Assembly: GCA_003599815.1 (NCBI GenBank)
Contig: QZJZ01000073.1
Coordinates: 14,556-78,555 of the forward strand
Length of the DNA stretch: 64,000 nt
Direction of reading: 5' to 3'
Source: Candidatus Auribacter fodinae
Lineage (GTDB): Bacteria; Auribacterota; Auribacteria; Auribacterales; Auribacteraceae
The stretch's first letter is position 1. Every line of letters starts with the position of its first letter. Positions 1 through 47,017 of the stretch are shown in pieces. The translations under genes and the position numbers were made by a program. The notes beneath the pieces are model-generated. The model saw only the letters and a program-made list of their open reading frames with translations, did no database searches and was not told the origin of the DNA.

Positions 1-20
1 CCGCGGTGGAGGTGGTAAAT

Positions 21-1766: not shown

Positions 1767-1787
1767 CAGTCTTAAGGAGTTTTCAGT

Positions 1788-13130: not shown

Positions 13131-13134
13131 TGCC

Positions 13135-15423: not shown

Positions 15424-15506
15424 CAGCAATGCAATCATTTTAAACCGTTTGACGACTGGAAAAGTCTCTAATATTCAATAGATTGATTGCTAAGGAGGTT
15501 TTAGCG

Positions 15507-17149: not shown

Positions 17150-17173
17150 GAATCTAAGGAGTATATATACATC

Positions 17174-19124: not shown

Positions 19125-19796
19125 TTACTTTTTAATTCTTTTTTTGATCGCGAAAAACATAGCAGCAAAACCAGCCAGTAACATCGCACTTGGTTCAGGA
19201 ACTGGAAATACGGCCAAAGTCTGCATTCCTGAAATGTCAATTGTAATTGGCGCATCAGTGCCAGGTATTTCAGGAATTGAAACTGTATAAACACCGGTAT
19301 CAAAATAGTACGAGTCTATATCATTTCCATAACGTCCATTTGACATTTCTGTTCCGTTCCAATTACCACCTGAAAACGCATTGTATGCGATGTTGTCAAA
19401 AACACGAAGGAAAACATACACTTTATTTGCGGCTCCCGGTGTTGCATCATAAGAAGGCGTATCTAACGACACCCCAACAAATCCCCCTGAACCTCCTAAC
19501 TGAGGATTATAAGGCAATGGATTGTACCCTGCAAAAAAGCCACCGAGTTCTGCTATATGATTTGATCCTGACGCAAAATATGGAACAGACTCAACTGGAT
19601 CAAGTATTGCTTTTGCTGCATCAGTCATCATAACCATGATAGATGCACCCATTGCAAGCTGATTTCCTTCAAAATCAAGAACAGGGCTAGCATTTGTCCA
19701 TTTAATGTTAATGCTCTGTGCCATACTAATGTTGCAAGAAATAACCAAGACGAACAGTGTAACGAGACTAGATGTAATTACCTTTTTCATTTTCAC
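19125..19796 (-). CDS. PEP-CTERM sorting-domain secreted protein
   Basis: N-terminal signal peptide. The C-terminus (VPEPSAMLLAGFAAMFFAIKKRIKK) has the PEP motif, a TM segment and a basic tail. Confidence 0.8.
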   Translation of the reverse strand: MKMKKVITSSLVTLFVLVISCNISMAQSINIKWTNASPVLDFEGNQLAMGASIMVMMTDAAKAILDPVESVPYFASGSNHIAELGGFFAGYNPLPYNPQLGGSGGFVGVSLDTPSYDATPGAANKVYVFLRVFDNIAYNAFSGGNWNGTEMSNGRYGNDIDSYYFDTGVYTVSIPEIPGTDAPITIDISGMQTLAVFPVPEPSAMLLAGFAAMFFAIKKRIKK

Positions 19797-19910: not shown

Positions 19911-20771
19911 TTATTCTTCCAACGGAGAAGGCGCCGCCCATGTAAATGGTGTGCGAGCATAATATAAGAATGCTTCTGTTGGTTTTAATTCAAGATCACT
20001 TTCAACCCAGAAAAAGAAAGGCGGTTTTTGTTCAAACCATTTTGGACCAGTGCCTTGGTCAAAGTAAACAATAAGTCTCTGCCATGCTGATCCATTATAC
20101 CCTGCTCTTATAAAATCACCGGTTCCAAAGGGATCGGAAGAAATACCTGCTGTTGGTGAGCCTGTCGTTGCATTGAAAGCGTTATTCACGGTAATGTTTG
20201 CCGGAAACGGATTACCGAGTAAGTTATATCCTGCTATAATTGGTATTTCAACATCTACGTCTTTCACTTCACCAAGGAAAAACAATTCATTTCGTGTGTC
20301 AGGAGCCGAAACATATTTCGCAAGAAAACCTTCACCATCTTCGAAATACATGGTTGAGGGTGTCCAGAAGAAGAAAGGAGGAGTTTGTTCATACCACCCA
20401 GCAATAGGATATGAAGGAGGATTTGCATTAAAGAACTGTGCTATCCTGTCAAATTTTCCATTTGCCCTGTTGAATTTTCTGATGAAATCTCCTTGGGCGA
20501 AATGCGTATCCGAAAACATTTCCGATGCTGATTCGTATACACCATTCCCATCGCTATCAAGGTTCAAATAGTGTTTTGTAACAGGCTCTCCAATATTCTG
20601 AAAAGGGATTGAATAAAAATATAATGTTTGCCCGGTGCCGGTCTGTACAGGAACTTTAACAAAACCGACCACTTTCGTGGATACTTCCTGCTGAGCAAAA
20701 ATCGAAGCTGAGAGAAACATACTTACAGCCACAACCAAACAACTGACGACATAAATTTTAAACCGGTTCAT
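19911..20771 (-). CDS. secreted protein with two internal repeat modules (PPFFFW motif), unknown function
   Basis: Start at 20771 after AGGAGG. Signal peptide present. GWYEQTPPFFFWTPS and KWFEQKPPFFFWVES lie in two similar halves. Confidence 0.55.
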   Translation of the reverse strand: MNRFKIYVVSCLVVAVSMFLSASIFAQQEVSTKVVGFVKVPVQTGTGQTLYFYSIPFQNIGEPVTKHYLNLDSDGNGVYESASEMFSDTHFAQGDFIRKFNRANGKFDRIAQFFNANPPSYPIAGWYEQTPPFFFWTPSTMYFEDGEGFLAKYVSAPDTRNELFFLGEVKDVDVEIPIIAGYNLLGNPFPANITVNNAFNATTGSPTAGISSDPFGTGDFIRAGYNGSAWQRLIVYFDQGTGPKWFEQKPPFFFWVESDLELKPTEAFLYYARTPFTWAAPSPLEE

Positions 20772-20940
20772 GATAATCCTCCTAATCCATGAAAACAATA
20801 CTATACATTCTATCTTTAGTTATAACACTTACATTTCGAAAAATAAAACAAAAAAAGATTACCGATACACTTAATTACATTCTACTGTATAAAAGAACAA
20901 ATATCAAGTTTTTTCATAATTGTTGTGATATTTTATTACT

Positions 20941-22350
20941 TTATGCCGGGCAATTAATTTGAGCCAGAATATTCTGAACCCGAGCATTTATTTTTACAGC
21001 CAGTTCCGGGCATTGCTGTAATGCCGTTTTATAATTTTTCACTGCGGATACGATATCGCCGTTTATTTCCGCCGCCCGCGCTTCAAAATATTTCAGTTCC
21101 GGGCTGGCGCATCCGGCTTGTTTCAAAAGATTAATATAGTAATCAAAATGATCATTTTCGCCCATTGAATCATAAATTTGAAGAATCCAGAGTGCGAAAA
21201 TGTTAGTACTTTTTCCGTGTGTAATCCTGTTGCGCGCGATATCCAGCGCACGCTGAAAATCCCCTGATAAATACAGAGTTTTGACGTATTCCAGCGCGTA
21301 TTGTTCATTATCAGGATATTTTTCGCACAGGATGGAAAACGAATTGTTCGCGCCGCTGATGTTTCCGCCGCGAACCTGTACGAAAGCAAGGCTTTCCAGA
21401 AAAGCTATGCTATCAGGATAGATGTTCAGCCCAGTCGAGAAAAAGTGTTCCGCGGACTGGTAGTCTCCCTTTGTATCGGCTATGATGCCGCGTGTCAGCA
21501 GAGCCTGCTGGTGGTGCGGGTTGGCCGCAAGAACTTCGTTCAGGTACCGGATGGACTCATCATATTTCAGCCACCTGAAATAGAGTGTTGCCAGATGGAA
21601 CCGCAGGTCGTGGTAATCAGGGTTACGATCATACGCCTTGAGGAAAAAGGTTTCAGCGGATATAAAGTCGCCCTGACTTAAATAGATGATACCGATATCG
21701 TTATACGGTTTCGGGTCTTCGGGTGTCAGTTGTATCTGGCGTAAGCCGAGTGCGAGGTAATGAGCGGTTTTTCGTTCTTTTTCGGCAGTATCAAGATGCC
21801 CGTAATGGTGAACGGCGATATCTGTCATGCCCACCACGCCGCCTATTTTTTCGATGGCAGGCCCTACTGTTTCATGTATAACCCCGCTGAACCGGATGGA
21901 AGGCAGGTTGCGGAACAGCCCTATTCGTTCAACCGGCACAAACCCTCGAGCCCGTTCGCAGTCGCCATAAGTTCCCGTGCATGGCTTATAGTTGAGCAGT
22001 CGTTCGTTGTCAGTGTAGTTTCGCTGTATAAGCATATATCCGGCGAGCTGGGTATTTTTGAGCAGTGACTTGATTTTAAAGCAGTCTCCCTCGGATATGC
22101 ATTCATCTGCGTCTATAAAAAGAATCCACTCGCCTTTTGCCATTTCAATCGAATAATTGCGAGCCGCGCTGAAATCATTGTTCCACATGAAATGATACAC
22201 ATCCGCGCCGTATTCACGTGCAATATCCGCTGTGCGATCGGTACTGCCGGTATCGACCACGATAATTTCGTCCGCGATATCCCTGATGGAACTGAGGGAG
22301 CCGGCGATACAGCGCTCTTCATTTTTTACGATCATACAGATACTTAACAT
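20941..22350 (-). CDS. family-2 glycosyltransferase fused to TPR repeats
   Basis: Start moved to MLSICMIVKNEE at 22350. GT2 motifs: VVDTGSTDRT and FIDADE. The C-terminal ~270 aa are TPR-like. Confidence 0.75.
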   Translation of the reverse strand: MLSICMIVKNEERCIAGSLSSIRDIADEIIVVDTGSTDRTADIAREYGADVYHFMWNNDFSAARNYSIEMAKGEWILFIDADECISEGDCFKIKSLLKNTQLAGYMLIQRNYTDNERLLNYKPCTGTYGDCERARGFVPVERIGLFRNLPSIRFSGVIHETVGPAIEKIGGVVGMTDIAVHHYGHLDTAEKERKTAHYLALGLRQIQLTPEDPKPYNDIGIIYLSQGDFISAETFFLKAYDRNPDYHDLRFHLATLYFRWLKYDESIRYLNEVLAANPHHQQALLTRGIIADTKGDYQSAEHFFSTGLNIYPDSIAFLESLAFVQVRGGNISGANNSFSILCEKYPDNEQYALEYVKTLYLSGDFQRALDIARNRITHGKSTNIFALWILQIYDSMGENDHFDYYINLLKQAGCASPELKYFEARAAEINGDIVSAVKNYKTALQQCPELAVKINARVQNILAQINCPA

Positions 22351-22473
22351 GATTTTATTGCGTCCTCGTGAATTATGGCTACAATAATAAGAGACACGAA
22401 AATTCCTTAATTGTTGCAAACACTATTATTATTATCGTAAAAAACGATGATTTAGTTTACCGGGAAGCGAGTT

Positions 22474-24075: not shown

Positions 24076-24871
24076 TGAGCGGTTCAATTTCTTCACCGGG
24101 CTGGACGGTTTTTTCTGTGATTTCTCCTTTCTGCCAGTTGGCTGAGCCGATAATAGCCGCGCCGTGCGGGCCGGCGATGCCGCCGAGTGTTCCTGTTCCT
24201 TTCCTTCCAAATTCCGGTTCGTGAAAAACGATTGCCTGATAGGTTGATACGCTGATCGTGCCGGACTGTTTCCATGTATTTTGCGGTGCGCCGTGCTTTG
24301 CGCATAAACTGCTGAGGAATAATTCTTTATCCGGCAACTGTTCCCAAACCTGCGGCAGGTACGTTGAAGATCCGTACGGTGTTTTCAGTACTACGCCGTC
24401 TCTGCCGGGTTCCAGTTTATCGAGCAATTCTTCAGGCGAGGAGAAAGTGATTTCTTCGGGTAACGTTAAAATGCTGATTTCAATTTGGATATCGTCGAGT
24501 TCTTTCAATGAGACGCGCGGAAACCGGGGATCCTGTGTCGCCGCGGCTATAGCCCGGTTGATAATCCCTTCATAAAGCGGTTCGACAGGAAGGATGTAGC
24601 CTATGCATCCCCGCAGTCCGTACCCGCGTTTAGTCAGAGTGACGAAGCATCCCCTTTTTACTTTCAGCTCATCCGGCAGAGCGGAAACATCAACTTCAGG
24701 TTTCGATTTGTTTTTCAGGTAACTTATTAATGTCGCTCGCGCAAGATTCAACAGATATGCCTGCTGGCGGGCGGTGTATGGGGAATCGTTATGCACGGGT
24801 TCGCCTCCTTTTGTACATGATGCTAATACCAATCCGGTTATTATGGTCAGAATGCAAGCAGTTTTTTTCAC
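24038..24871 (-). CDS. AMMECR1-domain protein with lipoprotein signal peptide and C-terminal extension
   Basis: Lipobox LVLASC. AMMECR1 core: RGCFVTLTK...LRGCIGYILP...DPRFP. About 60 extra C-terminal residues. Overlaps the convergent GT39-like gene by 38 nt. Confidence 0.7.
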   Translation of the reverse strand: MKKTACILTIITGLVLASCTKGGEPVHNDSPYTARQQAYLLNLARATLISYLKNKSKPEVDVSALPDELKVKRGCFVTLTKRGYGLRGCIGYILPVEPLYEGIINRAIAAATQDPRFPRVSLKELDDIQIEISILTLPEEITFSSPEELLDKLEPGRDGVVLKTPYGSSTYLPQVWEQLPDKELFLSSLCAKHGAPQNTWKQSGTISVSTYQAIVFHEPEFGRKGTGTLGGIAGPHGAAIIGSANWQKGEITEKTVQPGEEIEPLTICTPNSDIALK

Positions 24872-24951
24872 ACGTGAAATCCTCCCCGCTGAAATGTATG
24901 TCTTCAGAAAGTATAGTACGATAGGGGGATGTGAGAACGCAATATGATTCG

Positions 24952-25503
24952 CTACACCAGATGCCGCAGTTTTTTGAACGACGGGTGTGACGAATCCCGA
25001 AGCAATTCAAATAAAGCTATTTCCACAGAGCTGATTACCGCGCCTGCATCATGCATTTTGTTCAGCCCGGCGTTTTTGTTATTCTGATGACGTGAGGATA
25101 CCGCGTCGGAGATAATATGCGGTACGAACCCTGCGGCAAGAAGGTCGCAGGCGGTTTGCTGTACGCAGATATGCGTCTCGATTCCGGTGATTATAACCTG
25201 ATTCCGTTTATGGCGCACCAGGCATTCCCTCAGATCCGAATTGCCAAGACAGCTAAACGAGGTTTTTTCAAATACGGAGGCATCCGCAGGCACTGAACGT
25301 CGTATTGTATCTACCGTATTGCCCAGCCCGCGCGGGTATTGTTCAGAAACTATTATTGGTATATCCAGTTCAACAGCCGCGGCGATCATTTTGGCGGTGT
25401 TGTCGATGACTGTGTCAAGGTCAGGGATTGTCGCCAGAAATTTTTCCTGAATATCAATGATCAGAAGTGTACTTGTTTCTGTGGAAAGAAGCTGTTGTTT
25501 CAT
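24952..25503 (-). CDS. isochorismatase-family cysteine hydrolase
   Basis: LLIIDIQEKF, plus ITGIETHICVQQTACDL, is the family pattern with the catalytic Cys. Confidence 0.7.
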   Translation of the reverse strand: MKQQLLSTETSTLLIIDIQEKFLATIPDLDTVIDNTAKMIAAAVELDIPIIVSEQYPRGLGNTVDTIRRSVPADASVFEKTSFSCLGNSDLRECLVRHKRNQVIITGIETHICVQQTACDLLAAGFVPHIISDAVSSRHQNNKNAGLNKMHDAGAVISSVEIALFELLRDSSHPSFKKLRHLV

Positions 25504-25527
25504 TGGAACCCCTTTATAATTTATATG

Positions 25528-26229
25528 TTACACATTCGCAGTCTGGCGGTGAGCGATTAACCCGCGGATGCCTGCCCGTATCCTGCGAATAATCTGGGAA
25601 CGGGCGCTCATGTACCGGTTGCGGTCAGCGGCATCAGGGAAATAAACATACGTATTTATTTGCCCGATAGCGTCATATGTTTCCGCAGAAGGGACGAACC
25701 GTAAAGAGCCGGGGAACGTAATGTCATTAAAGGCTGATTCGGACAGGAGTATATATTGTTTTGACGGGAGAGAATTTTTCAATAATCGGTGCAGGATAAT
25801 GACATCAAGCCCGCCGAGTTCATTGAACTCGTTAATATTCATGAACATCGCTGTTCCGCTATGTACAATAATTTTAAGCTTTAACTGATCGAGGTTTTTA
25901 CAAAACAAGCACTCGCAGTCAGGATGGCTGAGCAGGGACTCAAGTTTGGCAGAAAACAATTCGAAAAAACGCAACAGCTTAATTCCAATGATAAACCGTA
26001 TTTCCTGCCATGTGTACTCGGCTGATTCTTTCGGCACGTAACAGAACACTGCGTCACCTTCCAGCTTGGCGAGATGCAGTGGTATTTTTATTTCGTCCAC
26101 AATCGCCTGAATAAGCTCGGTTATAACCAGCTGGCTGTGTTCCAGAGAAATTTTGTTTGAAACCATGTAACGTGTATAACCGCTTATATCGCAGATGATC
26201 AGGAGTACAGGGCGCTCGTTGGAGTTCAT
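25528..26229 (-). CDS. DUF2652-like protein (nucleotide-cyclase-like fold)
   Basis: LLIICDISGYTRYM...LEHSQLVITELIQAIV...LAKLEGDAVFCY matches my recollection of DUF2652. Confidence 0.55.
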   Translation of the reverse strand: MNSNERPVLLIICDISGYTRYMVSNKISLEHSQLVITELIQAIVDEIKIPLHLAKLEGDAVFCYVPKESAEYTWQEIRFIIGIKLLRFFELFSAKLESLLSHPDCECLFCKNLDQLKLKIIVHSGTAMFMNINEFNELGGLDVIILHRLLKNSLPSKQYILLSESAFNDITFPGSLRFVPSAETYDAIGQINTYVYFPDAADRNRYMSARSQIIRRIRAGIRGLIAHRQTANV

Positions 26230-26400
26230 AGGTGTTCCCTTTCAATAGCCTATTACTATTAATTATGCTTATAGATAGTTTGATTACTAAACCGGATACC
26301 GGTTTCATTTTTACTGACCATTTGACATAACAGGAAGATAGATATATAATTAAATATAACTAATTGTGCATGAATAGGATAAAAGCGCAACAAGGTAGTC

Positions 26401-26730
26401 ATGAAACGGATTGCGGTATACATAAGTATAATTTTTTTACACGCTGTCAGCGCAGAGAATTCTCTCAAGGCAACTATGATTGAGGATCAGCCTGCCGGCA
26501 TGCAGTCTGGCGCTTGTTCGATAGTTGCAAATGTACGAGATTATGTTATATCAGGAATACAATTTCCAATGACTGCCATCTCGCTTGGCAAAAACGCGAC
26601 AATAGGACTCTTCTGCACGTTCCATTCAGACAGTTCACCCTGTGCCAGCTATGAGTACAGAACGGTTGATGAAAAGAACCCTTCTTTCCCGCACCAACCG
26701 GCTCAGGAATCAATTTTTAATATTGAGTGA
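26401..26730 (+). CDS. small secreted hypothetical protein
   Basis: 109-aa ORF with a signal-like N-terminus (IAVYISIIFLHAVSA). Confidence 0.35.
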   Translation: MKRIAVYISIIFLHAVSAENSLKATMIEDQPAGMQSGACSIVANVRDYVISGIQFPMTAISLGKNATIGLFCTFHSDSSPCASYEYRTVDEKNPSFPHQPAQESIFNIE

Positions 26731-26800
26731 CGAGAGCGGCTGTTTTGTACCAATTCCGATATAAAGTCCGAATTAAATGTTAGCCGAGTACCTTACCCTA

Positions 26801-27670
26801 TCAGGGGCCCATCCCGAAACCCATGCCGTCGTAACCGTCATGGTAATGGTTGTCTTCATCTTCCGGTTCCGGCTCAATTTCCTGTTCGAATGGCGGAGTA
26901 ATCAGGTCGTCGATTTCCTGTTCGGGACCTTCCGGCGGTTGAAAATCGTCCGGGGGATTTGTGCCTAATGCGCCCATTTCAACATCGTCTTCAATGTCGT
27001 CAGAACCCGGGATAGTGGTATCGCCGATAACTTCGAGGAACGCGGGGTCGTCAAACTCAAACTCAAATAGTTGGGGTTCCTGCCCTTCAGGAAACCGCGC
27101 ACCGTTGTTTGGTCCTACCGGATATTGATCGGGGAAATTGGGATCAGTGCTCTGAGTCGTTGTGGTATCGCGTATGCCGAATACCGTTGTATCAGGCGGA
27201 TTCTCAGTTGTTTCCACTGCGTTTTCCGTACCGCGGACACCGGCTGTTGCTGTGCGGGTATGAATTTCGAAACGTGAATTGTTACGGGAGTATGACTTGC
27301 TGACCACTGACCGGACACGCCCTTTAGCAAGAGACAACACCGATTCACGGCGCTCAGTTTTTTCGTCATACACATTAACATCTATAGACAGCTCGCTTTC
27401 AGGGCCTATGGTTATGACACTGTCGTCTCTGAATACTATTTGTACTTTTGATTCCTTTTCCGTGAGTATCCTGTCGTTAAGATACACTTTACTGCCTGTT
27501 TCCATACGCTCAGGAGCAGGCGCTCCTTGATGATAATTGTTCACAATACCTTCCACACTATTCGCTATACCAACATTTTTGCCTTGCTGGGAATAGGCAG
27601 GACAGGCATATATCCCTGTCATGGAAATAAGTGAAAGAAGCAGTAAATAGTTCCAGAAACTTTTTTTCAC
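26801..27670 (-). CDS. secreted FecR-domain protein with acidic Pro/Glu/Asp-rich tail
   Basis: Signal peptide. FecR-like core: GSKVYLNDRILTEKESKVQIVFRDDSVITIGPESELSID. Tail: EQEIEPEPEDEDNHYHDGYDGMGFGMGP. Confidence 0.6.
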   Translation of the reverse strand: MKKSFWNYLLLLSLISMTGIYACPAYSQQGKNVGIANSVEGIVNNYHQGAPAPERMETGSKVYLNDRILTEKESKVQIVFRDDSVITIGPESELSIDVNVYDEKTERRESVLSLAKGRVRSVVSKSYSRNNSRFEIHTRTATAGVRGTENAVETTENPPDTTVFGIRDTTTTQSTDPNFPDQYPVGPNNGARFPEGQEPQLFEFEFDDPAFLEVIGDTTIPGSDDIEDDVEMGALGTNPPDDFQPPEGPEQEIDDLITPPFEQEIEPEPEDEDNHYHDGYDGMGFGMGP

Positions 27671-28234
27671 TGGTGCACCTCTCTTCTTTTATTGTTAAAA
27701 GTATAGAATATTTCTGACAGTCTCGTGTTTTATAGTACAGTCTGAATCAGGTTCATACAAGCACTATTTAGTAATATTAGATCATGTTTCGCTCCAAAAA
27801 TGAACAAAAATATCTCGTATACGGTATAAATATTTCACAGGAACACAAAAGAGGCAATGACAAGCCTGATTTTATTTTTATTAAAACAACGGCGCATGGT
27901 TTGTGATGTCCGTATGCTGCATTATGCAGAAAAATATCTTTGGTTATTTATGTAATAAATAAATGGATTGGGTGTTGTAGGGATAGAATGTTAGTCTGAG
28001 ATGCGCTTTTTGTGGAAATCCTTTTGCTGTTAGGTGAGTTTTGAACAAGTGGGGGACAGTGAATATCTGGGGCGCGAATGTGTGCCGACCCGGGGGGAAG
28101 TGTGGTTGATGCCTTGTGGGCACTACGCGTATCAATGGTTATACATAACATGGCTGTTAAAGAGATACCAATGAGCGTTGCGGCGCCGTTCGCGCCTATG
28201 ATGTAATAGTGTACCTTATTGTGCCCTGTGGTAT

Positions 28235-31198
28235 TTATACTGCTGAATTCACAAGCAAAGATACGACATCCTGAAGGTCATTGATTTTAAAAGGTTTTGG
28301 AATGACCGCCTTGAAGCCGTAGTTGTGATAATTCGACATAACCGGGTCTTTGGAATACCCGCTCGCGACAATACCGGTCACCGTGGGATCAAATTTCAGT
28401 ATTTCCGCGAAAGCGTCTTTGCCGCCCATGCCGCCGGGGACAGTGAGATCCATGATAACCGCATCAAAAGGGTTTTCCGTGGAATACGATTTTTTATAGG
28501 ATTCCACAGCTTCCTTGCCGTCGCTGGCAACCTCAACGTTATAACCAAGATGTTCCAGCGCCTGTTTAAGCAGTTCCCGGATCATTGCTTCGTCATCCAT
28601 CACAAGAATATGTTTCTGCTTGCCGGTTGTTTTAGGTTGAGTTACCTCAACCGCGGCGGGAGTTTCGGGTTCCTGTGCTGACCGTACAGCGCAGGGGATA
28701 TAAATATCGGCAATGGTTCCTATGCTGAATGCGGATTTAACAGTAAGTAAACCGTGATGTTTCTTTATTATTGAGTAACTGGATGATAACCCCAGCCCGC
28801 TGGCATTTTGTTTAGTCGTGAAAAACGGGTCGAATATTTTTGGGAGGTTTTCTTCAGCGATTCCGGTGCCCTGATCGGCAATAGACAGCTTAATGTATGC
28901 GCCTTCAGACAGTTCGGAAAATTCACCATCCATAAGAAGGATTTCCACGGCGGAAACCGATATTTTTCCACCGTCCGGCATGGCTTCCACCGCATTGGTC
29001 AGGATATTCACTATAACCTGCCGCATTTGCCCTTTGTCGATGCATGCCGCCGAGAGAGTTTCAGGCATAGTGCATTCGACCGTGACATTTTCGAACCTGC
29101 TGATGGCGTGGATCGCGTCGTTTACGACATCGGTAAGTGACGCGTCACGTATGATCGGCGCGCCGCCGCGCGAGAATGTGAGGAGCTTTTCACTTAACGT
29201 TTTAGCGCGTAGCGCTCCTGCTTCTGCCTTGGATAATGTTTCCGGTTTCATGTCCAGTTTCGAGAGGGAAATATACCCGAGCACGCTGGTTAATGCGTTA
29301 TTGAAATCGTGCGCTATGCCGCCGGCAAGAACAGCGAGCGAGTCGAGTTTTCGTCCTCGCATCAGTTCTTCTTCCATTTCCCTGCGTTCGGTAATGTCGT
29401 TGCCGAAACCGATAATTTCCTGAATAGTATTTGAACTGGAATATTTCAGCGTGTAATTCCATAGGATAATGCGTTTTCCACCGTTTTTAGCGGTCAGCTC
29501 CATTTCATAATTACGAATGGGGCCTGTTTTTAACTGCTCGATAAATTCCCCGAACTGGTCATTTGTCATATCAGGATAACAGGTTTTCCACCATGATTTG
29601 CCGACAAGTTCTTCATGAGTGTAGCCGGTGATTTCCTCTCCGGCAGGGTTGACCAGCGTGGTTATGCCGTGTGCGTCTGTACTGCAGATAATGGCAGGGC
29701 TGTTATGAATAATCTGCTCGGTATGGTCGCGTTGCGCCCGGAGTTCGTTTTCCGCCTTTTTACGGTCGGTCATTTCCCGCCCGATGCCTGCCGTGCCTAT
29801 AAGTATCCCTTCTTCATCGATAATGGGCATGATAATGGTTTCTATCCAGATATCATCGCCGTTTTCCATAAAGATTTGCCCTTCGTTTCTCTGGCATTCG
29901 CCTGTGACCAGTATGTCCTGTTCGCTGTCAGTGTGTTGTTTTGCGAGTTCTTCAGGCCAGAGGTCGTATTCCGTGCATCCGGGTATACTGTCAACAGGAT
30001 GCCCGCATAAAGCGGCGTATGCTTCGTTTGCCGCAAGGAAAATACCGTTTTTGTCTTTGAGCCACGCAATATCGGGTATTGTATCAAGAATAGCTTTCTG
30101 CTGTTGCTGAACACGCGCTATTTCTTCATCCTTGAGTTTGCGTTCCGTAATATTCTGGGCGAAAACTATCATGTATTCGCTGTGGTCAAATGTCATATGA
30201 TTCGCCACCACTTCCGCAGGAATGCGGGCGCCGTTTTTCGCGGTTACCATGAGTTCCTGTTTTGTTGACACTCGCTTTCTCAGGACACTAAATGCTTTTG
30301 CCCATCGCGTTATGGAGATACCGGGGAAAACTTCCGGTACTGACAGCGAGGTTAGCTCATCCCGCGTGTATCCGAGCATTTCACAGGCGGCTTTGTTCGC
30401 GTATGCGATGCGTGAATCCGGGGAAATTATAGCTGTGGGCGTTACTATGTTTTCTATCATATAATGCATCAGCCGCTGGGTACGTTCGCTCTTGGACTGT
30501 TTTTTCAATAACAGGTATATCCATATCGATATAACCAGTAGTGAGAGGGGTATTATCAGTGCACCGACAATAATGAACCCTATGGAAAATGGTTTGAGGA
30601 TAGTGAAAATAGCTGTATCGACCTGTTCCCTGGAACGGAATATACCGACTGTCAGATCGCTCTCAGGCACTGGCAGGATAGCCGCTATCTGATTATTGCC
30701 GACAGTGGCGGTACAGGTTCCCACATAACGCATCTTACGGCTGATAAGGCTATGCAATGACCGTGTTGAGGCGTCGTTTGAATCAGAGAGGACAGCATCA
30801 GGGGCTTTCTCTCCAGCCGGCACGGATTTATTGGAATGATACAGCAGGGTGGAATTACTGTCAAATACGCAGAGGTATTCATCCTCTTGACGGTCTGATG
30901 CCGCGTCCCAGACGGTACGTATGGCATTTATGATGTCCTCATTGTTCTGCGCTTCTTTCTGCAAACCGGCGCTGTTCGCGATATAAGACACCCGAGCGAG
31001 GGAATCATCTTTAATATGCTGTTCTATAACGCATATTGACTTATAAAACGATATTGATCCGATGATGAATACCATCAGCCATGACCAGATACCTATACTT
31101 ATCGCCAGACGGGGCAGAACTGCATTTAATGGGGATTCAGGCGACAGGCCTGTGAATTCCTGATGTAGAGAATTGTGCTTTCTTAGCGTCATGACCAT
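28235..31198 (-). CDS. hybrid sensor histidine kinase / response regulator with periplasmic sensor and multiple PAS domains
   Basis: Two TM segments flank a ~150-aa loop, followed by about three PAS modules. H-box HDFNNALTSV, G-box DQGTGI...FDPFFTTK, C-terminal receiver ILVMDDE...IMDLTVPGGMGG. Confidence 0.9.
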   Translation of the reverse strand: MVMTLRKHNSLHQEFTGLSPESPLNAVLPRLAISIGIWSWLMVFIIGSISFYKSICVIEQHIKDDSLARVSYIANSAGLQKEAQNNEDIINAIRTVWDAASDRQEDEYLCVFDSNSTLLYHSNKSVPAGEKAPDAVLSDSNDASTRSLHSLISRKMRYVGTCTATVGNNQIAAILPVPESDLTVGIFRSREQVDTAIFTILKPFSIGFIIVGALIIPLSLLVISIWIYLLLKKQSKSERTQRLMHYMIENIVTPTAIISPDSRIAYANKAACEMLGYTRDELTSLSVPEVFPGISITRWAKAFSVLRKRVSTKQELMVTAKNGARIPAEVVANHMTFDHSEYMIVFAQNITERKLKDEEIARVQQQQKAILDTIPDIAWLKDKNGIFLAANEAYAALCGHPVDSIPGCTEYDLWPEELAKQHTDSEQDILVTGECQRNEGQIFMENGDDIWIETIIMPIIDEEGILIGTAGIGREMTDRKKAENELRAQRDHTEQIIHNSPAIICSTDAHGITTLVNPAGEEITGYTHEELVGKSWWKTCYPDMTNDQFGEFIEQLKTGPIRNYEMELTAKNGGKRIILWNYTLKYSSSNTIQEIIGFGNDITERREMEEELMRGRKLDSLAVLAGGIAHDFNNALTSVLGYISLSKLDMKPETLSKAEAGALRAKTLSEKLLTFSRGGAPIIRDASLTDVVNDAIHAISRFENVTVECTMPETLSAACIDKGQMRQVIVNILTNAVEAMPDGGKISVSAVEILLMDGEFSELSEGAYIKLSIADQGTGIAEENLPKIFDPFFTTKQNASGLGLSSSYSIIKKHHGLLTVKSAFSIGTIADIYIPCAVRSAQEPETPAAVEVTQPKTTGKQKHILVMDDEAMIRELLKQALEHLGYNVEVASDGKEAVESYKKSYSTENPFDAVIMDLTVPGGMGGKDAFAEILKFDPTVTGIVASGYSKDPVMSNYHNYGFKAVIPKPFKINDLQDVVSLLVNSAV

Positions 31199-31344: not shown

Positions 31345-34300
31345 TTATGCTGAAGTATCAAGCGCACGCTGATGGTTTATCGCTTTGTTCAGCGTGTTGC
31401 TGACCGGTCGTACCGGCATGTTTACTTCGAGGAAAGGAGCTATATCGGCAATATCGATACCGCGGTTATTCAGCTGTGCGGTGAAATCGCCGAGCGATAA
31501 CGGTGTTTCCGGGTCGGTTTTCATTTGCCGGATTACATCCTGAGCAGTCGTAACAGCTATATGCTGTTTGAACAGAGATTGCACCACCCGTTTTTCACGG
31601 ATATCAAATATCGGTTTCAGCATACGCAGTACCACTGCTGATAGTTCATTCTGAGCAATCGGCGTATTAAGGAACGCGGAGAATTTTGCATTCATTTCGT
31701 CTTGCGGCAGAAGAAGGTTTTCTTCAGTTGCGCTGAATTGCCCGGTTGTACGCAATTGCCCTACTGCGTCAATAAGTTGTTTGTATGTTGGCGGAGCAGT
31801 TTGAGCCATAATGGCATATTGCGTGTAAATACTCTGAAACAGAGACAGGATTGACTGGTAATCCAGATAATTATATTCAGGGGTGATCACGATTCTGTCA
31901 TTTATGGAAACGACAAGCATCTCCGCAGGTAACTGTTCACTGCCAAGCGAGTTCAGGATATCGATCAGGAAAAGACCTGTTGAGATGTTTCCGTCGCTTT
32001 CCGTTGCGCTTTTTTCGATAACACGAACCGCGTTACCGTTCTGGCGAGCATAACCCGCGAGTGCTGAATCGGTTTTGTCGGTAACAATATATACCCTGTC
32101 CTGAAGAGAATCAAATGGAATTCCTGTGTCGCGATGCAGTATATTCTGCAGTTTCTGCTGAAGGAATATCTCTGCAATAACATCTTCACGCATTGCTGCG
32201 AATTGGGCATCCGACGGGGATGTTATGCCTTCCTGTCTGAACCGTTCCTGTATTTGCAGGTCGACATATCGCTGGTTGTGTGCGCCTGTCGCGTACTGGT
32301 ACAGGATTCCATCGGATGTGGAACGTTCATCAAAACCCAGAGCGAGAATATCGTCAAATGAATTGGATGTATCTCCCCGGGTGAACAGCGAGGCATCGAG
32401 ATGTTTGCGCAATGCCAGCCGGTCGCCTGATTCCGTATTCACGGCTATAACTATTGCGCGGCGGTTGTGCCTGTTGCGATGCTCGCGTCGGAATTCGCCG
32501 AGCGTGGTGCCGAGCGCGAAGTTGCCGGTATCGACATCTCTGGTAACCAGTGACGAGTCAACAAGAATAATGTCCGGATCCTTGGAAAATACATCGACTG
32601 AGCTGACGATGCGTGCTTTCAAATCGGTGATAACAGCAGGCAGGTAGGCTCGTCCCGCGTCGTACGGCATAAGCAGTAACTGCATCAGGAAATCTTCAGG
32701 TTTATGGAACGCGTTCAGCACGGAATCCAAATCTTTCAACGCATATCCGAACAGTTCCTGCAGTTCAATAGCGTGTTGGCGTTTGTCGGCGGACATTGTC
32801 TCATGACTGCGTATATTCTGCTGAATGTTTTTCCAGTACGATATTGTCTGATCGGCGATATCATGCAGTATGGCGGAGTGCGTTGTGGAATCAGCATCAG
32901 CATAAAAGGAGCTGAGTTCCGGGCGTCGGTTCTGAGTGAGTATGTTTTCTATTACATCAGTGTACCCTCGTACCTGCACTGCGATGAAATCATTGTCTGT
33001 GCGGGGAGTAAACGGTTTATTGGTGAACCGCTCCGCAGTGCGTGACTCCAGCATATCCTCGTAATTCGATTTTGTGTACGCTTCCACCGATTTTATCAGA
33101 TGCTTCTGTAAACTGGGGTCGGACAGCACCAGAGTATTGTCCGATTTCGGCATGGACGCGATATTAGACAGATAATTGGTCACCATATCAGGAGCGCCTT
33201 CTTTAGAACCGAAAGCCGCTACTTTATCCATGACATTGGAAAGATAAATCAGGTCAACATCTTTGCCTTGTGAAGAGAGGTAAGATGCCACGTCCGCTAT
33301 TTCCTCGCCCGCCCAGTTGGTTTCAGCGGCGAGCAGGCGTCCTTCAGTGATAAATGCCCGTGTTTTCTGGAACAGGTCTTCGTTGGATAACCATGTGAGC
33401 GATTGTTTTGCCCGCTGGTCAGCTTTTATAAGCTGTTCCAGCATATTCATCATATCAAAGCCTTTATTTCTCATTACTTCGTATTCCCACAGTTCGCCGA
33501 CATAAGGGCGTATATGGTCAGGGAAAAATTTCCCGAGCATTTGTGAGACGTTTTCAAGATATTTTGGAGATGGTTTGATATCCCTGAAAAAGGCGTATAT
33601 TTCAGGAAGTGTCGCGTCTGAAGATATTTCCATTGGAGTTTCGCCTTCTCTGGCATATCGCTGGAAAAACACATTCCCGTCGCGTACCACCCGCCGCACA
33701 GGGCGCGCGGAAAGCAGAGAGAGGTAATCAATGCGTGTAGGGGCAAAAGTAACCAGCATACTCCGAAGCGGTATAAAAAACTGGGTTATGACCGGGTTAA
33801 AATCAAGGATAACAGCTTGTTCTGGTTCAGCGGCGGCGATATATGAGAGGTTTACCCCGCTGGCGGCAACACCGACGTAGGTGTTATGGTATGCCTCTGA
33901 GCGCAATTGCCCGATAACCTGTTCCCATTGAGGTTCGTTCGTGGCGTACCATATGGGCAGTATCTTTTTTTCCGGCAGTTCGGATACAGGTGTTTCTCTG
34001 GAAAACCGGCGATGAAAATCATAATACGCTTCCATGTTCTTGAGAACCGTAGCGGCAACCTGTGCTGACGGTTGGTCATACTGGCCGTCAACGACAATGC
34101 CGATCATTTTGTCAAGCGTATTCAGAATATCGCGCGTGCTGTCAGGGCCTGTCGGTTCAGCTAGGAATACGTTATCAGGCAGGAGTTCTGGTGAAGAAAC
34201 TTTGCCTACCTGAAAATGTGTTGCGCGTAACGCCGCAAGCGCCATGCTTTCGTCATTTCCGTCGTAACTGTCGCCGAAAACGAGTATATCGTCTTCCGAT

Positions 34301-37300
34301 ACGGCAAGGCGGTTTGTAATAAAATCATTAATCGCATCGCCTTTGTCATTGGCTGATATATCTATGCTGTAATTGCCGGCAATGGCGGCTTGCAGGGGAA
34401 TCCCGTTTTTCTGCATGAGGTCAATGATATTATGGTATATTTGCCGTCGTACTGAGTCGGGATATGTTTCGCCCGGTAAACGTACTGTAATAAGCCCGTG
34501 ATTGACACGCAGGATGTACTTGTCAACATCCTGTTCGGCAACAATTTGTTTGACTGATTCGACAAAAGAATCATAGTTCTGCGTATTCTGAAATACGTCC
34601 TGTATGGTGATTTCGTAGTACGGTTTTTCCGCTCCGGTTTCATCAAAACCTTTAGCCAGCGACCCATTGTTAGCATATACGTGTAACCGGGACAGCTGTT
34701 CCGGCGCGAAACGGCTGACAACCCGTTCTTTTATACCGTCATAGACCTGTCCTGAAATAATGACTATATGAATACCGCGATCCATCAGTTTGCCCATGAC
34801 ATCGATTATTTCGTCAGGAATAGGCAAAAAGGCATCTCCTTCACGGATGGACAAAGTGCCGTCAAGGTCAAAGACAATGGCTTTCGGGCGGTCATTGAAC
34901 GTCTCAGGGTCACCGATAAACGCAAGCAGTTTGTCCAGAACAGCCTGCTGTTTTGCTGTCCTGCCTGACAGTAACGCCTTTGTTGATTCCGGCGCGGGTG
35001 ATGTCGGTATAAACTTCCGTTCTTCAGATACCCTGAACAGATCCGCCAGCACCGCAGGGTTGTTATATATACTGCTGATATTCGCGTCGCGGGTTTCTGT
35101 GTCATATGGTTTGTCCGCATGGCGGGTGACGATAAATTCCAGCCTGCGTGTATCGGAACCGGGTATGGATGAAACCTGCGCCTGATACAATGATGATTCC
35201 CCTGACAGCGCGAAAATGACCGGGTTGGTTCCTGTCCACTGGTCAGCATCAGCCTGCATCATTCCGATGAGAAAATCTATAACAACCGGGAGAGGCGCTG
35301 ACTGATCAATGATAATTTCAGTTATATTCTGTGTTTTGAGCGTATTAGTTATGCTTTGAGGCAATGATGTGTCAGGTGCGGTGATGCCTCTGGAAATAAG
35401 AGTTTGCGCCGTTTCGACAAATTCTCTGCCGGATTGCGTCAGTTCAATAAATTTTCCGGTATCTGTCTGGTTGATTTGGACTATCTGAGCGTCAAGCCAT
35501 TTCTGAACCAGCGCGTCGCGGACATCCGCATTGGCAAGAAACAATTTATTCAGATCATCCATCGGAAGCGGATTTTCCATTAACCGAGTCAGAGCAGAAA
35601 GGGTAACGCTATGAGCCGCTTCATGTTCAATATACGAGCCTTCACGCACGACAACTGTGATGCCGTCAAGGTTTATATCGGTCAGTATTCTGGATGCGTC
35701 GTCAGGGAAAAACTGCCGTTCCGCTTCGGATTCCGGTTTGAACGAGAAGGTATACTTTTTCCCGACAATTTCCATTTCAAGGATAAGTTCGCCGCTCAAG
35801 CCCCTGAACAGGTTAATGTACCGCATTTCCTGAAAGTTGCTGGAACCCCATTTTGCCAGAATGAACGATTCTATTCTGTCCTTTAAGTCGGATAAATTAT
35901 ATAACCCCTGTGATTCCAGTTCTTTAATGCCGGCGGCAGTCAGTACTGCCTTAAGCTCTATACGAAACGATTTCGCGCCTTTTGAGTCAAGAAGCGCATG
36001 CCTCGCAAGAAGCGAGGCGACCGCTAACGTGCTTCTGCTCTGGCTTGAAAACTGGGTAATCGCGTTTTCCAGAGCCTGCTCAAACGGCGAGCGGGTGTTG
36101 TTTAAACGGTCACGGTATAACTGGTAATGGTTGTGATCAGTCATGCCGGGCGAAACAATTGTGTATGATATAAGTTCTTCCGCCAGAATTTCCTTTATAC
36201 CCTCGACATGGAATCCGCCCACAACAAGGCACGCTTTTTCGCAGTTTTCTATTTCCATGTCTGAAAGCAGGTTGTCGATCATTGTGCGGTTACGCTGATG
36301 CGCTGTTTCGTAGAATAAAAGGGAGTTTTCCAGCTCGCCTGATATTTCCGGCAGGCCTGCGGTCAGTTCCGACGGCGCGTTATACTGCGCAAGAAACGCT
36401 CCAATGCTTTCCGGCAGGTACAGATCCTTTTCCTCAAGCAGGCGTTTATATTCGCTGGCAGACAGATCGAGGCTGAACAGTTTCGCCATAACGGCGAAGC
36501 GTGAACTCCACTGGTACACGGCGTATTGCCCGGGATCACTGAAAATCAGTTTTGCGAGCTGATCGTGAGCCGAGGCGGATTCGGCAATAAGCTGGGCATG
36601 GTCGACACCTTTTGACGTTTTCAGGTATTCGCTGTATATATGCAGTTGTTTGAATGATGACAGGTCAACGTTCTTTTCCCGAGCCAGTTCAAACAGCCGC
36701 GTGTAATAGTCAAATGGGGTAATCTTGTTTATCTGCAGGTCATTATACATGCCCGACAGGTACGATTCCGTTTCTTTCTCCGCGGCAAGAAGAGCAACCG
36801 CTTTATCCCGTTCGAATTCAAGGCGGAACGAGTCGATCTGCTTTTCGATCTCCAGTGAACGGTGAAGCATAGAAATAGCCGGATATTCGTTCAGTCCGGC
36901 ACCGTATTCGGTCATCAGGTCAACAAGGTACATGCAGTACTGGACAAACGACACTTCGCTACGCTGAACAGCCTGTGACATGGCGTCAAACTGTTTCTGC
37001 TGGAACCCGTATGAACTTTCCGCCATGTTGTAGGTAAATTTCTTTAACTGCGCTATATAATCCTGCGCCTGAACGGCTGATTCATTGAACGAACGGTACA
37101 GCGTCAGGTTTTTGATGTACAGCTCAGCGTTTTCCACACCGATGGTAATCGGCTGGTTTTCGTTCGGGCGCGCAATAATATTAAAATATTCTACGCCGTT
37201 GATCTTTCCTTCCTTAAGAAAGTATAAAGATACGGCTGACCGCGTTTTTTCCAGAGGAAAGGTGCGCAAATCCGATATGCCCAGCTCTCCGGCGGCGCCC

Positions 37301-37599
37301 TCCATCGCGATAATTTTTTTCTGCGGATCGGAAACGTACAAAGAGAGAATATCAGCGATATGCTGTTGAGCCTGAGCGTTGCAGTGGGCATCCATGATAA
37401 TCATGATTTCACGGTCGTCCAACCCGGTAAATGATTCCACGATGGTGCCTGTTTTAGGATTTGCCCTCAGCTCTTTTGTGAGCGTTTCCGGAAGGCTGTA
37501 CACGCTGGATACATACGTGGATAGAATCAATCCGGTGACAGCAATCGCCGCAACGGGATTGAAAAGATGACGAAATTTTTTATGCCATGCGTTTATCAT
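31345..37599 (-). CDS. giant (2084 aa) membrane-anchored multidomain protein with an embedded HAD-IIB phosphatase domain; overall function unknown
   Basis: Uninterrupted ORF with an N-terminal TM anchor. HAD motifs FDLDGTLS and FGDSYDGNDESM lie at roughly nt 34200-34890. The other segments are only weakly assignable. Confidence 0.8.
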   Translation of the reverse strand: MINAWHKKFRHLFNPVAAIAVTGLILSTYVSSVYSLPETLTKELRANPKTGTIVESFTGLDDREIMIIMDAHCNAQAQQHIADILSLYVSDPQKKIIAMEGAAGELGISDLRTFPLEKTRSAVSLYFLKEGKINGVEYFNIIARPNENQPITIGVENAELYIKNLTLYRSFNESAVQAQDYIAQLKKFTYNMAESSYGFQQKQFDAMSQAVQRSEVSFVQYCMYLVDLMTEYGAGLNEYPAISMLHRSLEIEKQIDSFRLEFERDKAVALLAAEKETESYLSGMYNDLQINKITPFDYYTRLFELAREKNVDLSSFKQLHIYSEYLKTSKGVDHAQLIAESASAHDQLAKLIFSDPGQYAVYQWSSRFAVMAKLFSLDLSASEYKRLLEEKDLYLPESIGAFLAQYNAPSELTAGLPEISGELENSLLFYETAHQRNRTMIDNLLSDMEIENCEKACLVVGGFHVEGIKEILAEELISYTIVSPGMTDHNHYQLYRDRLNNTRSPFEQALENAITQFSSQSRSTLAVASLLARHALLDSKGAKSFRIELKAVLTAAGIKELESQGLYNLSDLKDRIESFILAKWGSSNFQEMRYINLFRGLSGELILEMEIVGKKYTFSFKPESEAERQFFPDDASRILTDINLDGITVVVREGSYIEHEAAHSVTLSALTRLMENPLPMDDLNKLFLANADVRDALVQKWLDAQIVQINQTDTGKFIELTQSGREFVETAQTLISRGITAPDTSLPQSITNTLKTQNITEIIIDQSAPLPVVIDFLIGMMQADADQWTGTNPVIFALSGESSLYQAQVSSIPGSDTRRLEFIVTRHADKPYDTETRDANISSIYNNPAVLADLFRVSEERKFIPTSPAPESTKALLSGRTAKQQAVLDKLLAFIGDPETFNDRPKAIVFDLDGTLSIREGDAFLPIPDEIIDVMGKLMDRGIHIVIISGQVYDGIKERVVSRFAPEQLSRLHVYANNGSLAKGFDETGAEKPYYEITIQDVFQNTQNYDSFVESVKQIVAEQDVDKYILRVNHGLITVRLPGETYPDSVRRQIYHNIIDLMQKNGIPLQAAIAGNYSIDISANDKGDAINDFITNRLAVSEDDILVFGDSYDGNDESMALAALRATHFQVGKVSSPELLPDNVFLAEPTGPDSTRDILNTLDKMIGIVVDGQYDQPSAQVAATVLKNMEAYYDFHRRFSRETPVSELPEKKILPIWYATNEPQWEQVIGQLRSEAYHNTYVGVAASGVNLSYIAAAEPEQAVILDFNPVITQFFIPLRSMLVTFAPTRIDYLSLLSARPVRRVVRDGNVFFQRYAREGETPMEISSDATLPEIYAFFRDIKPSPKYLENVSQMLGKFFPDHIRPYVGELWEYEVMRNKGFDMMNMLEQLIKADQRAKQSLTWLSNEDLFQKTRAFITEGRLLAAETNWAGEEIADVASYLSSQGKDVDLIYLSNVMDKVAAFGSKEGAPDMVTNYLSNIASMPKSDNTLVLSDPSLQKHLIKSVEAYTKSNYEDMLESRTAERFTNKPFTPRTDNDFIAVQVRGYTDVIENILTQNRRPELSSFYADADSTTHSAILHDIADQTISYWKNIQQNIRSHETMSADKRQHAIELQELFGYALKDLDSVLNAFHKPEDFLMQLLLMPYDAGRAYLPAVITDLKARIVSSVDVFSKDPDIILVDSSLVTRDVDTGNFALGTTLGEFRREHRNRHNRRAIVIAVNTESGDRLALRKHLDASLFTRGDTSNSFDDILALGFDERSTSDGILYQYATGAHNQRYVDLQIQERFRQEGITSPSDAQFAAMREDVIAEIFLQQKLQNILHRDTGIPFDSLQDRVYIVTDKTDSALAGYARQNGNAVRVIEKSATESDGNISTGLFLIDILNSLGSEQLPAEMLVVSINDRIVITPEYNYLDYQSILSLFQSIYTQYAIMAQTAPPTYKQLIDAVGQLRTTGQFSATEENLLLPQDEMNAKFSAFLNTPIAQNELSAVVLRMLKPIFDIREKRVVQSLFKQHIAVTTAQDVIRQMKTDPETPLSLGDFTAQLNNRGIDIADIAPFLEVNMPVRPVSNTLNKAINHQRALDTSA

Positions 37600-47014: not shown

Positions 47015-47017
47015 GTT

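Follow-up and report, generated by a model that had tools for sequence, protein, structure and literature searches.

A 2084-residue protein of Candidatus Auribacter fodinae opens with a widely shared head domain, likely a TIKI-type hydrolase

The TIKI superfamily is already known, and among its members the erythromycin esterase EreC uses a catalytic set of E47/H50, E78 (28 residues after the histidine), R261, and H289 (28 residues after the arginine) (PMC7979712). In VvRRSP the set comprises E3900/H3902, E3930 (+28), R4001, and H4030 (+29), and for Bcr135 the residues H85/E113, again 28 apart, are given (PMC6254334). Long modular proteins of the Omnitrophota type are known as well: in the portions of text searched, West-Roberts et al. 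2023 and Nielsen & Lui 2026 deal with proteins of at least 10,000 residues, and Seymour et al. 2023 with open reading frames (ORFs) of more than 20 kb. In the literature, giant and long proteins from Omnitrophota and allied uncultured bacteria appear as a group with poor conservation and, for the most part, no annotation. We characterized a giant ORF of 2084 residues from Candidatus Auribacter fodinae (contig QZJZ01000073.1, positions 14,556 to 78,555; this whole stretch of 64,000 nucleotides is referred to as the window), whose N-terminal domain, here called the head, recurs across a very large family of proteins with differing tails. As far as we found in the parts of the literature searched, a head family fronting variable tails is apparently unreported, and the text searched of the three studies named above does not describe a shared TIKI-like N-terminal head.

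The explanation that we prefer, with a probability of about 50%, is that the giant ORF encodes a Sec-exported modular enzyme with a TIKI-type hydrolase head, acting at the cell surface by a composite mechanism. A signal peptide would be followed by the 485-residue head, a TIKI/erythromycin-esterase-type alpha/beta hydrolase core into which a 270-residue helical lobe is inserted. The tail of the orthologous group would then contribute a winged-helix-like element, a HAD-IIB phosphatase presumably acting on a sugar-phosphate-type substrate, DUF7790, an alpha/beta region, and a conserved C-terminal tag. The protein would work outside the cytoplasm, most likely on cell-surface glycoconjugates or exoproteins, and the head would mature its own tail, release it, or else act on a surface substrate by cleaving it. 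Of this picture, the analysis shows the family, its invariant residues, the variability of the tails, the orthologues, and the synteny, and from these the hydrolase chemistry, the export, and the cell-surface substrate are inferred. The ORF and the features of its N-terminal part are as follows.

31345..37599, minus strand: giant ORF, 2084 residues plus stop codon, with an ATG start and collinear orthologues
37495..37599, minus strand (residues 1-35): positively charged n-region and hydrophobic segment, with AXA-type sites in orthologues
36040..37494, minus strand (residues 36-520): conserved head with a likely TIKI/erythromycin-esterase-like alpha/beta hydrolase core, from alignment, AlphaFold2 (AF2), and profile search
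36325..37128, minus strand (residues 158-425): all-helical insert within the head, about 12 helices, from AF2 secondary structure

We determined that the head defines a very large, unnamed family, drawn here mostly from Omnitrophota-type metagenome-assembled genomes (MAGs). A first homologue search returned one full-length relative together with 20 giant proteins of 1,300-3,500 residues that share residues ~30-520 only; these head-only relatives come from Omnitrophota and Auribacterota MAGs, and the alignment of the 21 heads contains 11 invariant columns. When the head profile was run exhaustively against 1.84 billion representative proteins, it matched 10,536 clusters at E<=1e-3, 7,458 of them at E<=1e-30, the clusters being defined at the 50% identity level. 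The head was N-terminal in all of the best 150 of these 10,536 matches, with protein sizes from 502 to 7853 residues, and in most of the 150 it came after a segment resembling a signal peptide. Nine residues (D70, H72, Q78, E100, R436, G461, G462, H464, and Y495) were each invariant in 160 of 160 diverse members, and E137 and E156 were nearly so. No model of the head domain was present in the Pfam or NCBIfam libraries searched, and no paper tying Omnitrophota proteins to such a domain was found in the portions of the literature searched.

The loci with heads in GTDB genomes were overwhelmingly from Candidatus Omnitrophota MAGs, with several per genome. It was also noted that a contig carrying an orthologue of the giant gene (L060, described below) begins, at positions 1-240 of its minus strand, with the start of a second head gene (matching query residues 51-130 at 34% identity), divergent from the orthologue and ~6 kb upstream of it. 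Together with the two to three head genes seen in several MAGs of the GTDB scan, this indicates that the family is multi-copy within genomes.

The relationship of the head to the TIKI superfamily was suggested by the order and spacing of the invariant residues. The set D70-x-H72, E100 (+28), R436, and H464 (+28) follows the same order and spacing as those of EreC and RRSP. The two histidines and two acidic residues of the superfamily, with a glutamate about 28 residues after the first histidine, are found in the head as D70-x-H72/E100/H464, the first acid being Asp and not Glu; the basic residue expected about 28-29 positions before the second histidine is R436, which lies 28 residues before H464 and is invariant in 160 of 160 members. 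The AF2 model of the head was confident (predicted local distance difference test score, pLDDT, 85; predicted template modelling score, pTM, 0.74) and shows a beta-alpha core with strands at 51-57, 64-70, 95-99, 151-155, 455-461, and 478-484. In this model the invariant residues sit directly after strands 64-70, 95-99, 151-155, and 455-461.

Alignments of a single block point in the same direction. The R-[DN]...GG[FY]H block of the head aligns with three TIKI-clan families, namely TraB/GumN, ChaN, and Erythro_esteras (PF05139), the last by a weak match on the R...GxxH block. In hhalign comparisons the head gave P 0.29 against YbaP alone and P=0.0086 against an eight-sequence TraB/GumN profile. 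The ChaN model PF04187 matched one of the 21 head members at E 4e-5 when the full head was used, and the core alone scored 15.7 bits against a gathering score of 27.7 bits.

Several results weigh against this assignment. All scores to the TraB/GumN and ChaN families lie under the family thresholds, the hhalign probability is just 4.7%, and a single 35-column block aligns. Foldseek with the whole head gave no significant match in PDB or BFVD; the hits are coiled-coil and helical-bundle noise because the 270-residue helical insert dominates the comparison, and EreC (6xcs_A) is the sole enzyme among them (rank 20, probability 0.25, TM-scores 0.19/0.25). Profile searches of PDB sequences with the head or the core-only alignment returned no Ere, ChaN, or RRSP chain. 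The mapping of the N-terminal motifs of the head onto TraB is ambiguous, and greedy or global extension gave no settled map. While statistical support for the TIKI link is still weak, we regard a TIKI/Ere-type hydrolase as the likely, if unproven, identity of the head. The initial annotation had offered a ChaN/EreA/TraB/Tiki-type fold as a weak guess for residues 60-470, and motif spacing and block alignments now make it the best-supported reading of this region.

Read against EreC and RRSP, the head would use H72 as general base, with D70 holding that histidine in place. E100 and H464 would orient the attacking water, and the part of R436 would be to stabilise either the substrate or the transition state. 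The bond hydrolyzed may be an ester or a peptide bond, as suggested by the same comparison. In the AF2 model, the helical insert is possibly a lid or a substrate-recognition lobe.

The head was then compared with described members of the superfamily. EreA-D and Bcr135/136 share its catalytic order and spacing, and on both sides an alpha/beta core carries an extra lobe. However, the acid motif of EreC is E-x-x-H where the head has D-x-H, and unlike these enzymes the head is accompanied by a 270-residue helical insert, an export signal, and a tail of ~1560 residues, with no significant sequence or fold score between them. VvRRSP has two His and two Glu plus an essential Arg at head-like spacing, and its TIKI-type core likewise lies inside a very long secreted multi-domain protein. 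There is no detectable sequence similarity between VvRRSP and the head, and RRSP is a variable effector in a toxin conserved in its repeats and its cysteine protease domain, whereas the head is itself the conserved N-terminal module. TraB/GumN/PrgY (PF01963) and ChaN (PF04187) proteins, whose R-[ND]...G-x-x-H block aligns with the head, are stand-alone proteins of ~250-400 residues without its large helical insert. Proteins of these two families are typically extracytoplasmic or membrane-associated.

Among 144 representatives of the family, 10,293 of 10,296 head pairs were detectably similar. For the tails of the same representatives, 720 pairs showed any similarity and 55 were alike over at least 70% of the shorter tail. 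The tails with any Pfam match carry enzyme modules: matches in relatives include ARMT1/DUF89 with a CofD-like domain, AAA_5, PP2C, DSPc, UDPGP, and a complete phosphoglycerate kinase (PGK, E 2e-76) with phosphoglucomutase (PGM) domains. An unfamiliar domain combination, which the initial annotation had noted for the giant protein, is not peculiar to it, tails that vary being the norm across the >10,000 clusters of the family.

The reality of the giant ORF was assessed through its orthologues. An identical protein with the same neighbours is encoded on a separate Joint Genome Institute (JGI) contig of the same organism (L001), and collinear orthologues at ~34-37% identity were found in five other assemblies. 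These are the MAG 'bacterium AUK210' (L002; JAGGZS010000092.1), with the called protein P0002; a 157-kb contig (L060) and a 395-kb contig (L061), with intact orthologue ORFs of 2078 and 2080 residues; and two long-read contigs (L051 and L052), in which the orthologous gene is broken solely by frameshifts. In the four-sequence orthologue alignment every segment was conserved, linker and tail included, and the GC content and third-position GC content (GC3) of the giant ORF agree with the surrounding genome. Within the window the ORF is more than twice the length of any other on the ORF list (2084 versus 987 residues for the runner-up) and is uninterrupted, as the initial annotation had described. 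The motifs quoted there were also found where it had placed them, with VAAIAVTGLILSTYVSSVYS at residues 16-35, IIMDAHCNAQAQQH at 67-80, IAMEGAAG at 97-104, and CLVVGGFHVEG at 457-467 (nt 36199-36231).

Some features of the orthologous genes bear on how the family is recovered from databases. It was noted that frameshifts split the orthologous gene of L051 (4163-10254) and of L052 into at least 10 small called ORFs; such fragmentation in long-read contigs hides family members in protein databases, and P0161 and P0162 are pieces of this kind. P0002 is called only as far as residue 1989, whereas its tblastn match with the window protein runs on in one segment to residue 2084; the L002 gene may thus have an in-frame stop, or a sequencing error, close to its 3' end. 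A first metagenome scan gave no match, and an Rfam search of the window likewise gave none. Internal repeats were considered for the giant protein and rejected, none being present.

Behind the head, the following features were recognized in the giant protein.

34888..36039, minus strand (residues 521-904): linker, conserved among orthologues, with no family match save the winged-helix element
35383..35613, minus strand (residues ~663-739): MarR-type winged-helix-like element, borderline, from profile comparison with PDB
34090..34887, minus strand (residues 905-1170): phosphatase domain of the HAD-IIB (Cof) type, complete in its four catalytic motifs, from Pfam Hydrolase_3
33100..34074, minus strand (residues 1176-1500): DUF7790 domain (PF25046), Rossmann-like, with a GxGxxG-type fingerprint (G1243..G1248) followed by D1266
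31348..33099, minus strand (residues 1501-2084): tail with blocks PDIxLVDxS, RRxIVxAV, TRGDxSxxFD, and GxFLIDILxSxG conserved among orthologues
31348..31437, minus strand (residues 2055-2084): conserved extreme C-terminus, ..IPPRPVSxxLNNAIxRQxSLDxSA or, more loosely, ..PxRPVSxxLNxAIxxQxxLDxSA, common to the window, L060, and L061

The HAD domain is the clearest of these. Pfam Hydrolase_3 matched residues 908-1119 at 30.1 bits against a cut-off of 20.9, covering profile positions 1-218 with the cap region included, and the motifs D911-L-D913-G-T915, S949, K1086, and G1109-D1110...N1115-D1116 are invariant in the four orthologues. The trusted cut-offs of the NCBIfam HAD models were not reached (TIGR01484, 35.3 bits versus 41.8; TIGR00099, 33.6 versus 137), and the profile matches place the domain as a divergent HAD-IIB member to which no equivalog can be assigned. 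The four motifs are shared with HAD-IIB (Cof-type) phosphatases such as BT4131, which is among the PDB profile hits. Where those phosphatases are small cytoplasmic enzymes, the domain here is embedded in a giant and probably exported protein.

DUF7790 was matched from residue 1219 onward at 50.6-57.4 bits against a cut-off of 23 (E 2e-13 to 2e-15), in two stretches, the best of which spans positions 3-78 of the 272-position profile. No mention of DUF7790 was found in the literature searched. The linker contains a stretch (residues ~663-739) with a hit to PDB chains of MarR (E 0.004, four-orthologue profile), and weak TFIIE_alpha, FeoC, and pRN Pfam hits fall on the same stretch of P0002; a MarR-like winged helix is odd within a protein predicted to be exported. 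Pfam, NCBIfam, and PDB searches found nothing that matches the final ~580-600 residues. The AF2 model of DUF7790 and the tail, built from four sequences, reached pLDDT 51 and was unusable because the alignment depth was too low, and the generic Rossmann-like Foldseek hits obtained with this model (E>=0.08) were discarded. The region after DUF7790 is tentatively read as alpha/beta, and the extreme C-terminus is possibly a sorting or secretion tag, distinct from the PEP-CTERM motif.

Word-indexed homologue searches with the tail and DUF7790 found nothing beyond the orthologue fragments P0161 and P0162, and phmmer searches with the linker, HAD, DUF7790, and tail segments against the 160 family members matched P0002 only. 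The domain calls of the initial annotation were correct: its HAD-IIB phosphatase is supported by an above-threshold Pfam match and conserved motifs, its conserved Rossmann-like family proved to be DUF7790 (above threshold, with the GxGxxG fingerprint and following acid consistent), and its last ~600 residues without recognizable motif are likewise without a match in the profile searches.

We further considered where the protein would act. Residues 1-35 are probably a Sec signal peptide, with possible cleavage between VYS and LPE, or else a signal anchor, judging from the sequence. The orthologues have short h-regions followed by AXA-type sites (PSNA followed by EN, and QSFA followed by QE). 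A hydrophobic segment stands just ahead of the head in 130 of the 160 family members, and 100 of the 160 have no second such segment. The count of Lys plus Arg averages 2.8 before the hydrophobic segment versus 1.3 after it, the bias taking this direction in 94 members versus 20. Export is the best prediction because of this family-wide bias and the AXA-type sites of the orthologues. The single hydrophobic N-terminal anchor of the initial annotation is thus retained as a segment, and what was taken for a permanent anchor looks more like a cleavable Sec signal peptide, given the AXA sites.

Two points count against export: it is predicted from crude sequence rules, and the tail modules are cytoplasmic in type (HAD-IIB, GxGxxG, and winged helix here; PGK, UDPGP, and AAA ATPases in relatives) and would lack their cofactors outside the cell. 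This character of the tail enzymes is unexplained by export, and it keeps alive the alternative of a membrane-tethered cytoplasmic scaffold, in which an uncleaved N-terminal anchor would hold both head and tail on the cytoplasmic side and sugar-phosphate and nucleotide-dependent enzymes would be gathered at the membrane as a metabolon. We consider such a scaffold possible though rather doubtful. It would suit the HAD-IIB, Rossmann GxGxxG, and MarR-like modules as well as the PGK (E 2e-76), PGM, UDPGP, and AAA_5 domains of relatives, and the topology signal of the window protein itself is ambiguous, with three Lys plus Arg before and three after the hydrophobic segment. For long Omnitrophota proteins with transmembrane helices only, Nielsen & Lui 2026 consider, in the part of the text searched, that their regulatory and sugar-metabolism modules would fit an anchored-cytoplasmic reading. 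However, the positive-inside bias of the family prefers an N-in/C-out orientation, and the short h-regions and AXA-type sites of the orthologues are typical of cleaved signal peptides. The members without a second hydrophobic segment have none to bring the chain back to the cytoplasm, and the conserved partner genes described below encode secreted and PEP-CTERM proteins.

A constant head with highly variable tails is a hallmark of polymorphic toxin and effector families, and it raises a different alternative: a polymorphic effector polyprotein delivered to another cell, in which the TIKI-type head would be a processing protease that frees variable effector enzymes, the part played in MARTX toxins by the cysteine protease domain. 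Toxin and effector domains with the TIKI fold exist, including RRSP in MARTX toxins, PMT, and HopBA1 (PMC6254334). Omnitrophota, in which the family is concentrated, have giant proteins for which a link to predatory or host-dependent lifestyles has been proposed, and exported nucleotide-dependent enzymes would make sense in the cytoplasm of a target cell. We nevertheless judge this unlikely. No secretion-system, immunity, or translocation genes were seen beside the gene in the window, L060, or L061, and PGK and PGM are housekeeping-type enzymes that would be unusual effectors. The TIKI domain of MARTX toxins belongs to their variable effectors and is not the conserved module, and glycine-rich or other internal repeats are absent from the giant protein. 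Consistent with this, the features of MARTX or polymorphic toxins were lacking: repeats are absent, Pfam finds neither Peptidase_C80 nor another protease in the protein, and none of the neighbours that could be annotated is a secretion or immunity gene. The window carries genes for sulfate assimilation, for the biosynthesis of haem and aromatic amino acids, and for enolase and a GH57 branching enzyme, and its genome looks metabolically complete and free-living, which also speaks against delivery to another cell.

The metabolically complete look of the host genome also sets the giant protein apart from the long multi-enzyme proteins of Omnitrophota. These proteins share with it enzyme modules (HAD, methyltransferase-like, sugar-phosphate) arrayed one after another downstream of a signal peptide or transmembrane segment, and both are poorly conserved overall. 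With 2084 residues and two Pfam domains, the giant protein falls outside class 1 of Nielsen & Lui 2026 as given in the text searched (at least 10,000 residues, many distinct enzyme Pfam domains, a signal peptide or transmembrane segment, and an Omnitrophota host). It does have an N-terminus resembling a signal peptide and is similar in kind.

We then examined the gene neighbourhood, the relevant parts of which are listed here.

22474-31198: intervening ~9-kb block with PMT_2 (plus strand), AMMECR1, isochorismatase, DUF2652, a small ORF, FecR, and the PAS hybrid kinase
20941..22419, minus strand: GT2-TPR glycosyltransferase, a conserved partner; in L060 and L061 it stands right after the giant gene
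19911..20798, minus strand: 295-residue secreted protein with signal peptide and no family match, a conserved partner by synteny
19125..19796, minus strand: 223-residue protein with signal peptide and PEP-CTERM sorting domain (TIGR02595), a conserved partner by synteny

Directly behind the giant gene, L060 and L061 each carry the GT2-TPR gene, a gene for a 327-residue secreted protein, and one or two PEP-CTERM genes, and the flanks beyond this block are unrelated between the two contigs. The window holds homologues of the GT2-TPR, secreted, and PEP-CTERM genes in the same order and on the same strand (22419->19125), ~9 kb further downstream. The TIGR02595 matches reach 18.5 bits in the window, 21.1 in L060, and 18.0 and 17.1 in L061, against a 16-bit cut-off. 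These partners support a cell-surface role for the giant protein.

Three observations temper this association. It rests on three related genomes (enolase 77% identical), and it was not repeated at the other 48 head-family loci, so that it is specific to the orthologous group and not a property of the head family. No exosortase (XrtA/EpsH) was seen among the larger ORFs of the window, L060, and L061 that were scanned with Pfam; exosortases are often encoded elsewhere in the genome.

Immediately downstream of the giant ORF in the window stand a three-PAS hybrid histidine kinase gene, 146 nt away, and, after a further 564 nt, a gene for a FecR-domain protein, the order and gaps that the initial annotation had reported. 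From these it had proposed that the membrane-anchored giant protein forms a signalling or modification module with the kinase and the FecR protein. The genes are co-directional, no terminator-like minus-strand site lies between the giant ORF and the kinase, and the same arrangement occurs on the independent contig L001 of the same organism; the promoter and terminator scan at the giant gene and kinase was at chance level. However, no homologues of the kinase, FecR, GFO, NAPRT, DUF2652, or isochorismatase genes were found within 10 kb of the giant gene in L060 and L061, and neither a kinase nor a FecR gene was present at any of the 48 GTDB head-family loci. The kinase-FecR block looks inserted, since in L060 and L061 the giant gene directly adjoins genes that lie beyond the block in the window, and the comparison is best read as a lineage-specific insertion of 22474-31198 that interrupts a conserved unit of four genes. 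The block showed no mobile-element genes.

The best explanation is that the kinase and FecR genes are not part of the giant-protein system, and we hold a module with them to be improbable. The giant-kinase-FecR neighbourhood, whose conservation had been put forward as a test, is absent from L060, L061, and the 48 head loci, and the signalling half of the proposed envelope-associated module is thereby unsupported. An envelope or surface role stands as plausible, from the export signals and the GT2-TPR, secreted, and PEP-CTERM partners. An artefact, whether an assembly chimera or a fused pseudogene without function as a single protein, has its odd length and domain mixture as sole points in its favor and can be dismissed, given the identical protein on a separate contig, five collinear orthologues of which two are intact at 2078 and 2080 residues, conservation of all segments, and a composition that fits the genome.

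Further observations were made on the partner genes and the rest of the window. The regions 19125-19796 and 19911-20798 have a GC content of 0.40 and GC3 of 0.30-0.33, versus ~0.48 and ~0.51 for the rest of the window, and in the 295-residue secreted protein (19911-20798) the motif W[YF]EQxPPFFFW is duplicated. The plus strand encodes, at 51809-53629 and 22474-24075, two membrane glycosyltransferases of the PMT_2 type (GT39/83-like), of which one carries fused TPR repeats; counting the GT2-TPR gene, the 64-kb window holds three glycosyltransferases. An assimilatory sulfate-reduction cluster at 11454-18979 includes sulfite reductase (NIR_SIR), a CysN/CysC fusion (EF-Tu-type GTPase plus APS kinase), and a GltD-like Fe-S flavoprotein with an N-terminal TPR-like segment. 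Tetrapyrrole genes at 45342-50642 encode glutamyl-tRNA reductase, a CobA/HemD fusion, and a HemL-type aminotransferase; with the DHQ synthase, RlmN, MgtE, enolase, and GH57 branching enzyme genes further on, they form an ordinary chromosomal context. At the start of the window (6-2993, plus strand), adjacent ORFs of 586 and 401 residues have no Pfam match at E<=1e-5, and a Laminin_G_3 (concanavalin-like) protein is encoded nearby at 5164-6213.

For the locus itself, the conserved partners of the giant gene are a glycosyltransferase and PEP-CTERM surface proteins, and not the adjacent kinase, which redirects work on it. A bolder idea, which we think has only an outside chance of being right, is that the head is a common export-and-processing module: Omnitrophota-type bacteria would secrete thousands of different multi-enzyme polyproteins, and the head hydrolase would cut or release the tail at the surface or in a partner or prey cell. 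If true, the system would follow a MARTX-like logic with another protease at its core, and the 'dark' giant proteins of the group would gain a shared mechanistic handle. The poor conservation and annotation of giant proteins have blocked functional hypotheses about them. The giant ORF exposes a conserved and, from its sequence, probably catalytic N-terminal domain that is common to >10,000 sequence clusters. If the head is an active TIKI-type hydrolase, it would offer one entry point into a large body of protein 'dark matter', by way of one domain, five candidate catalytic residues, and a confident model.

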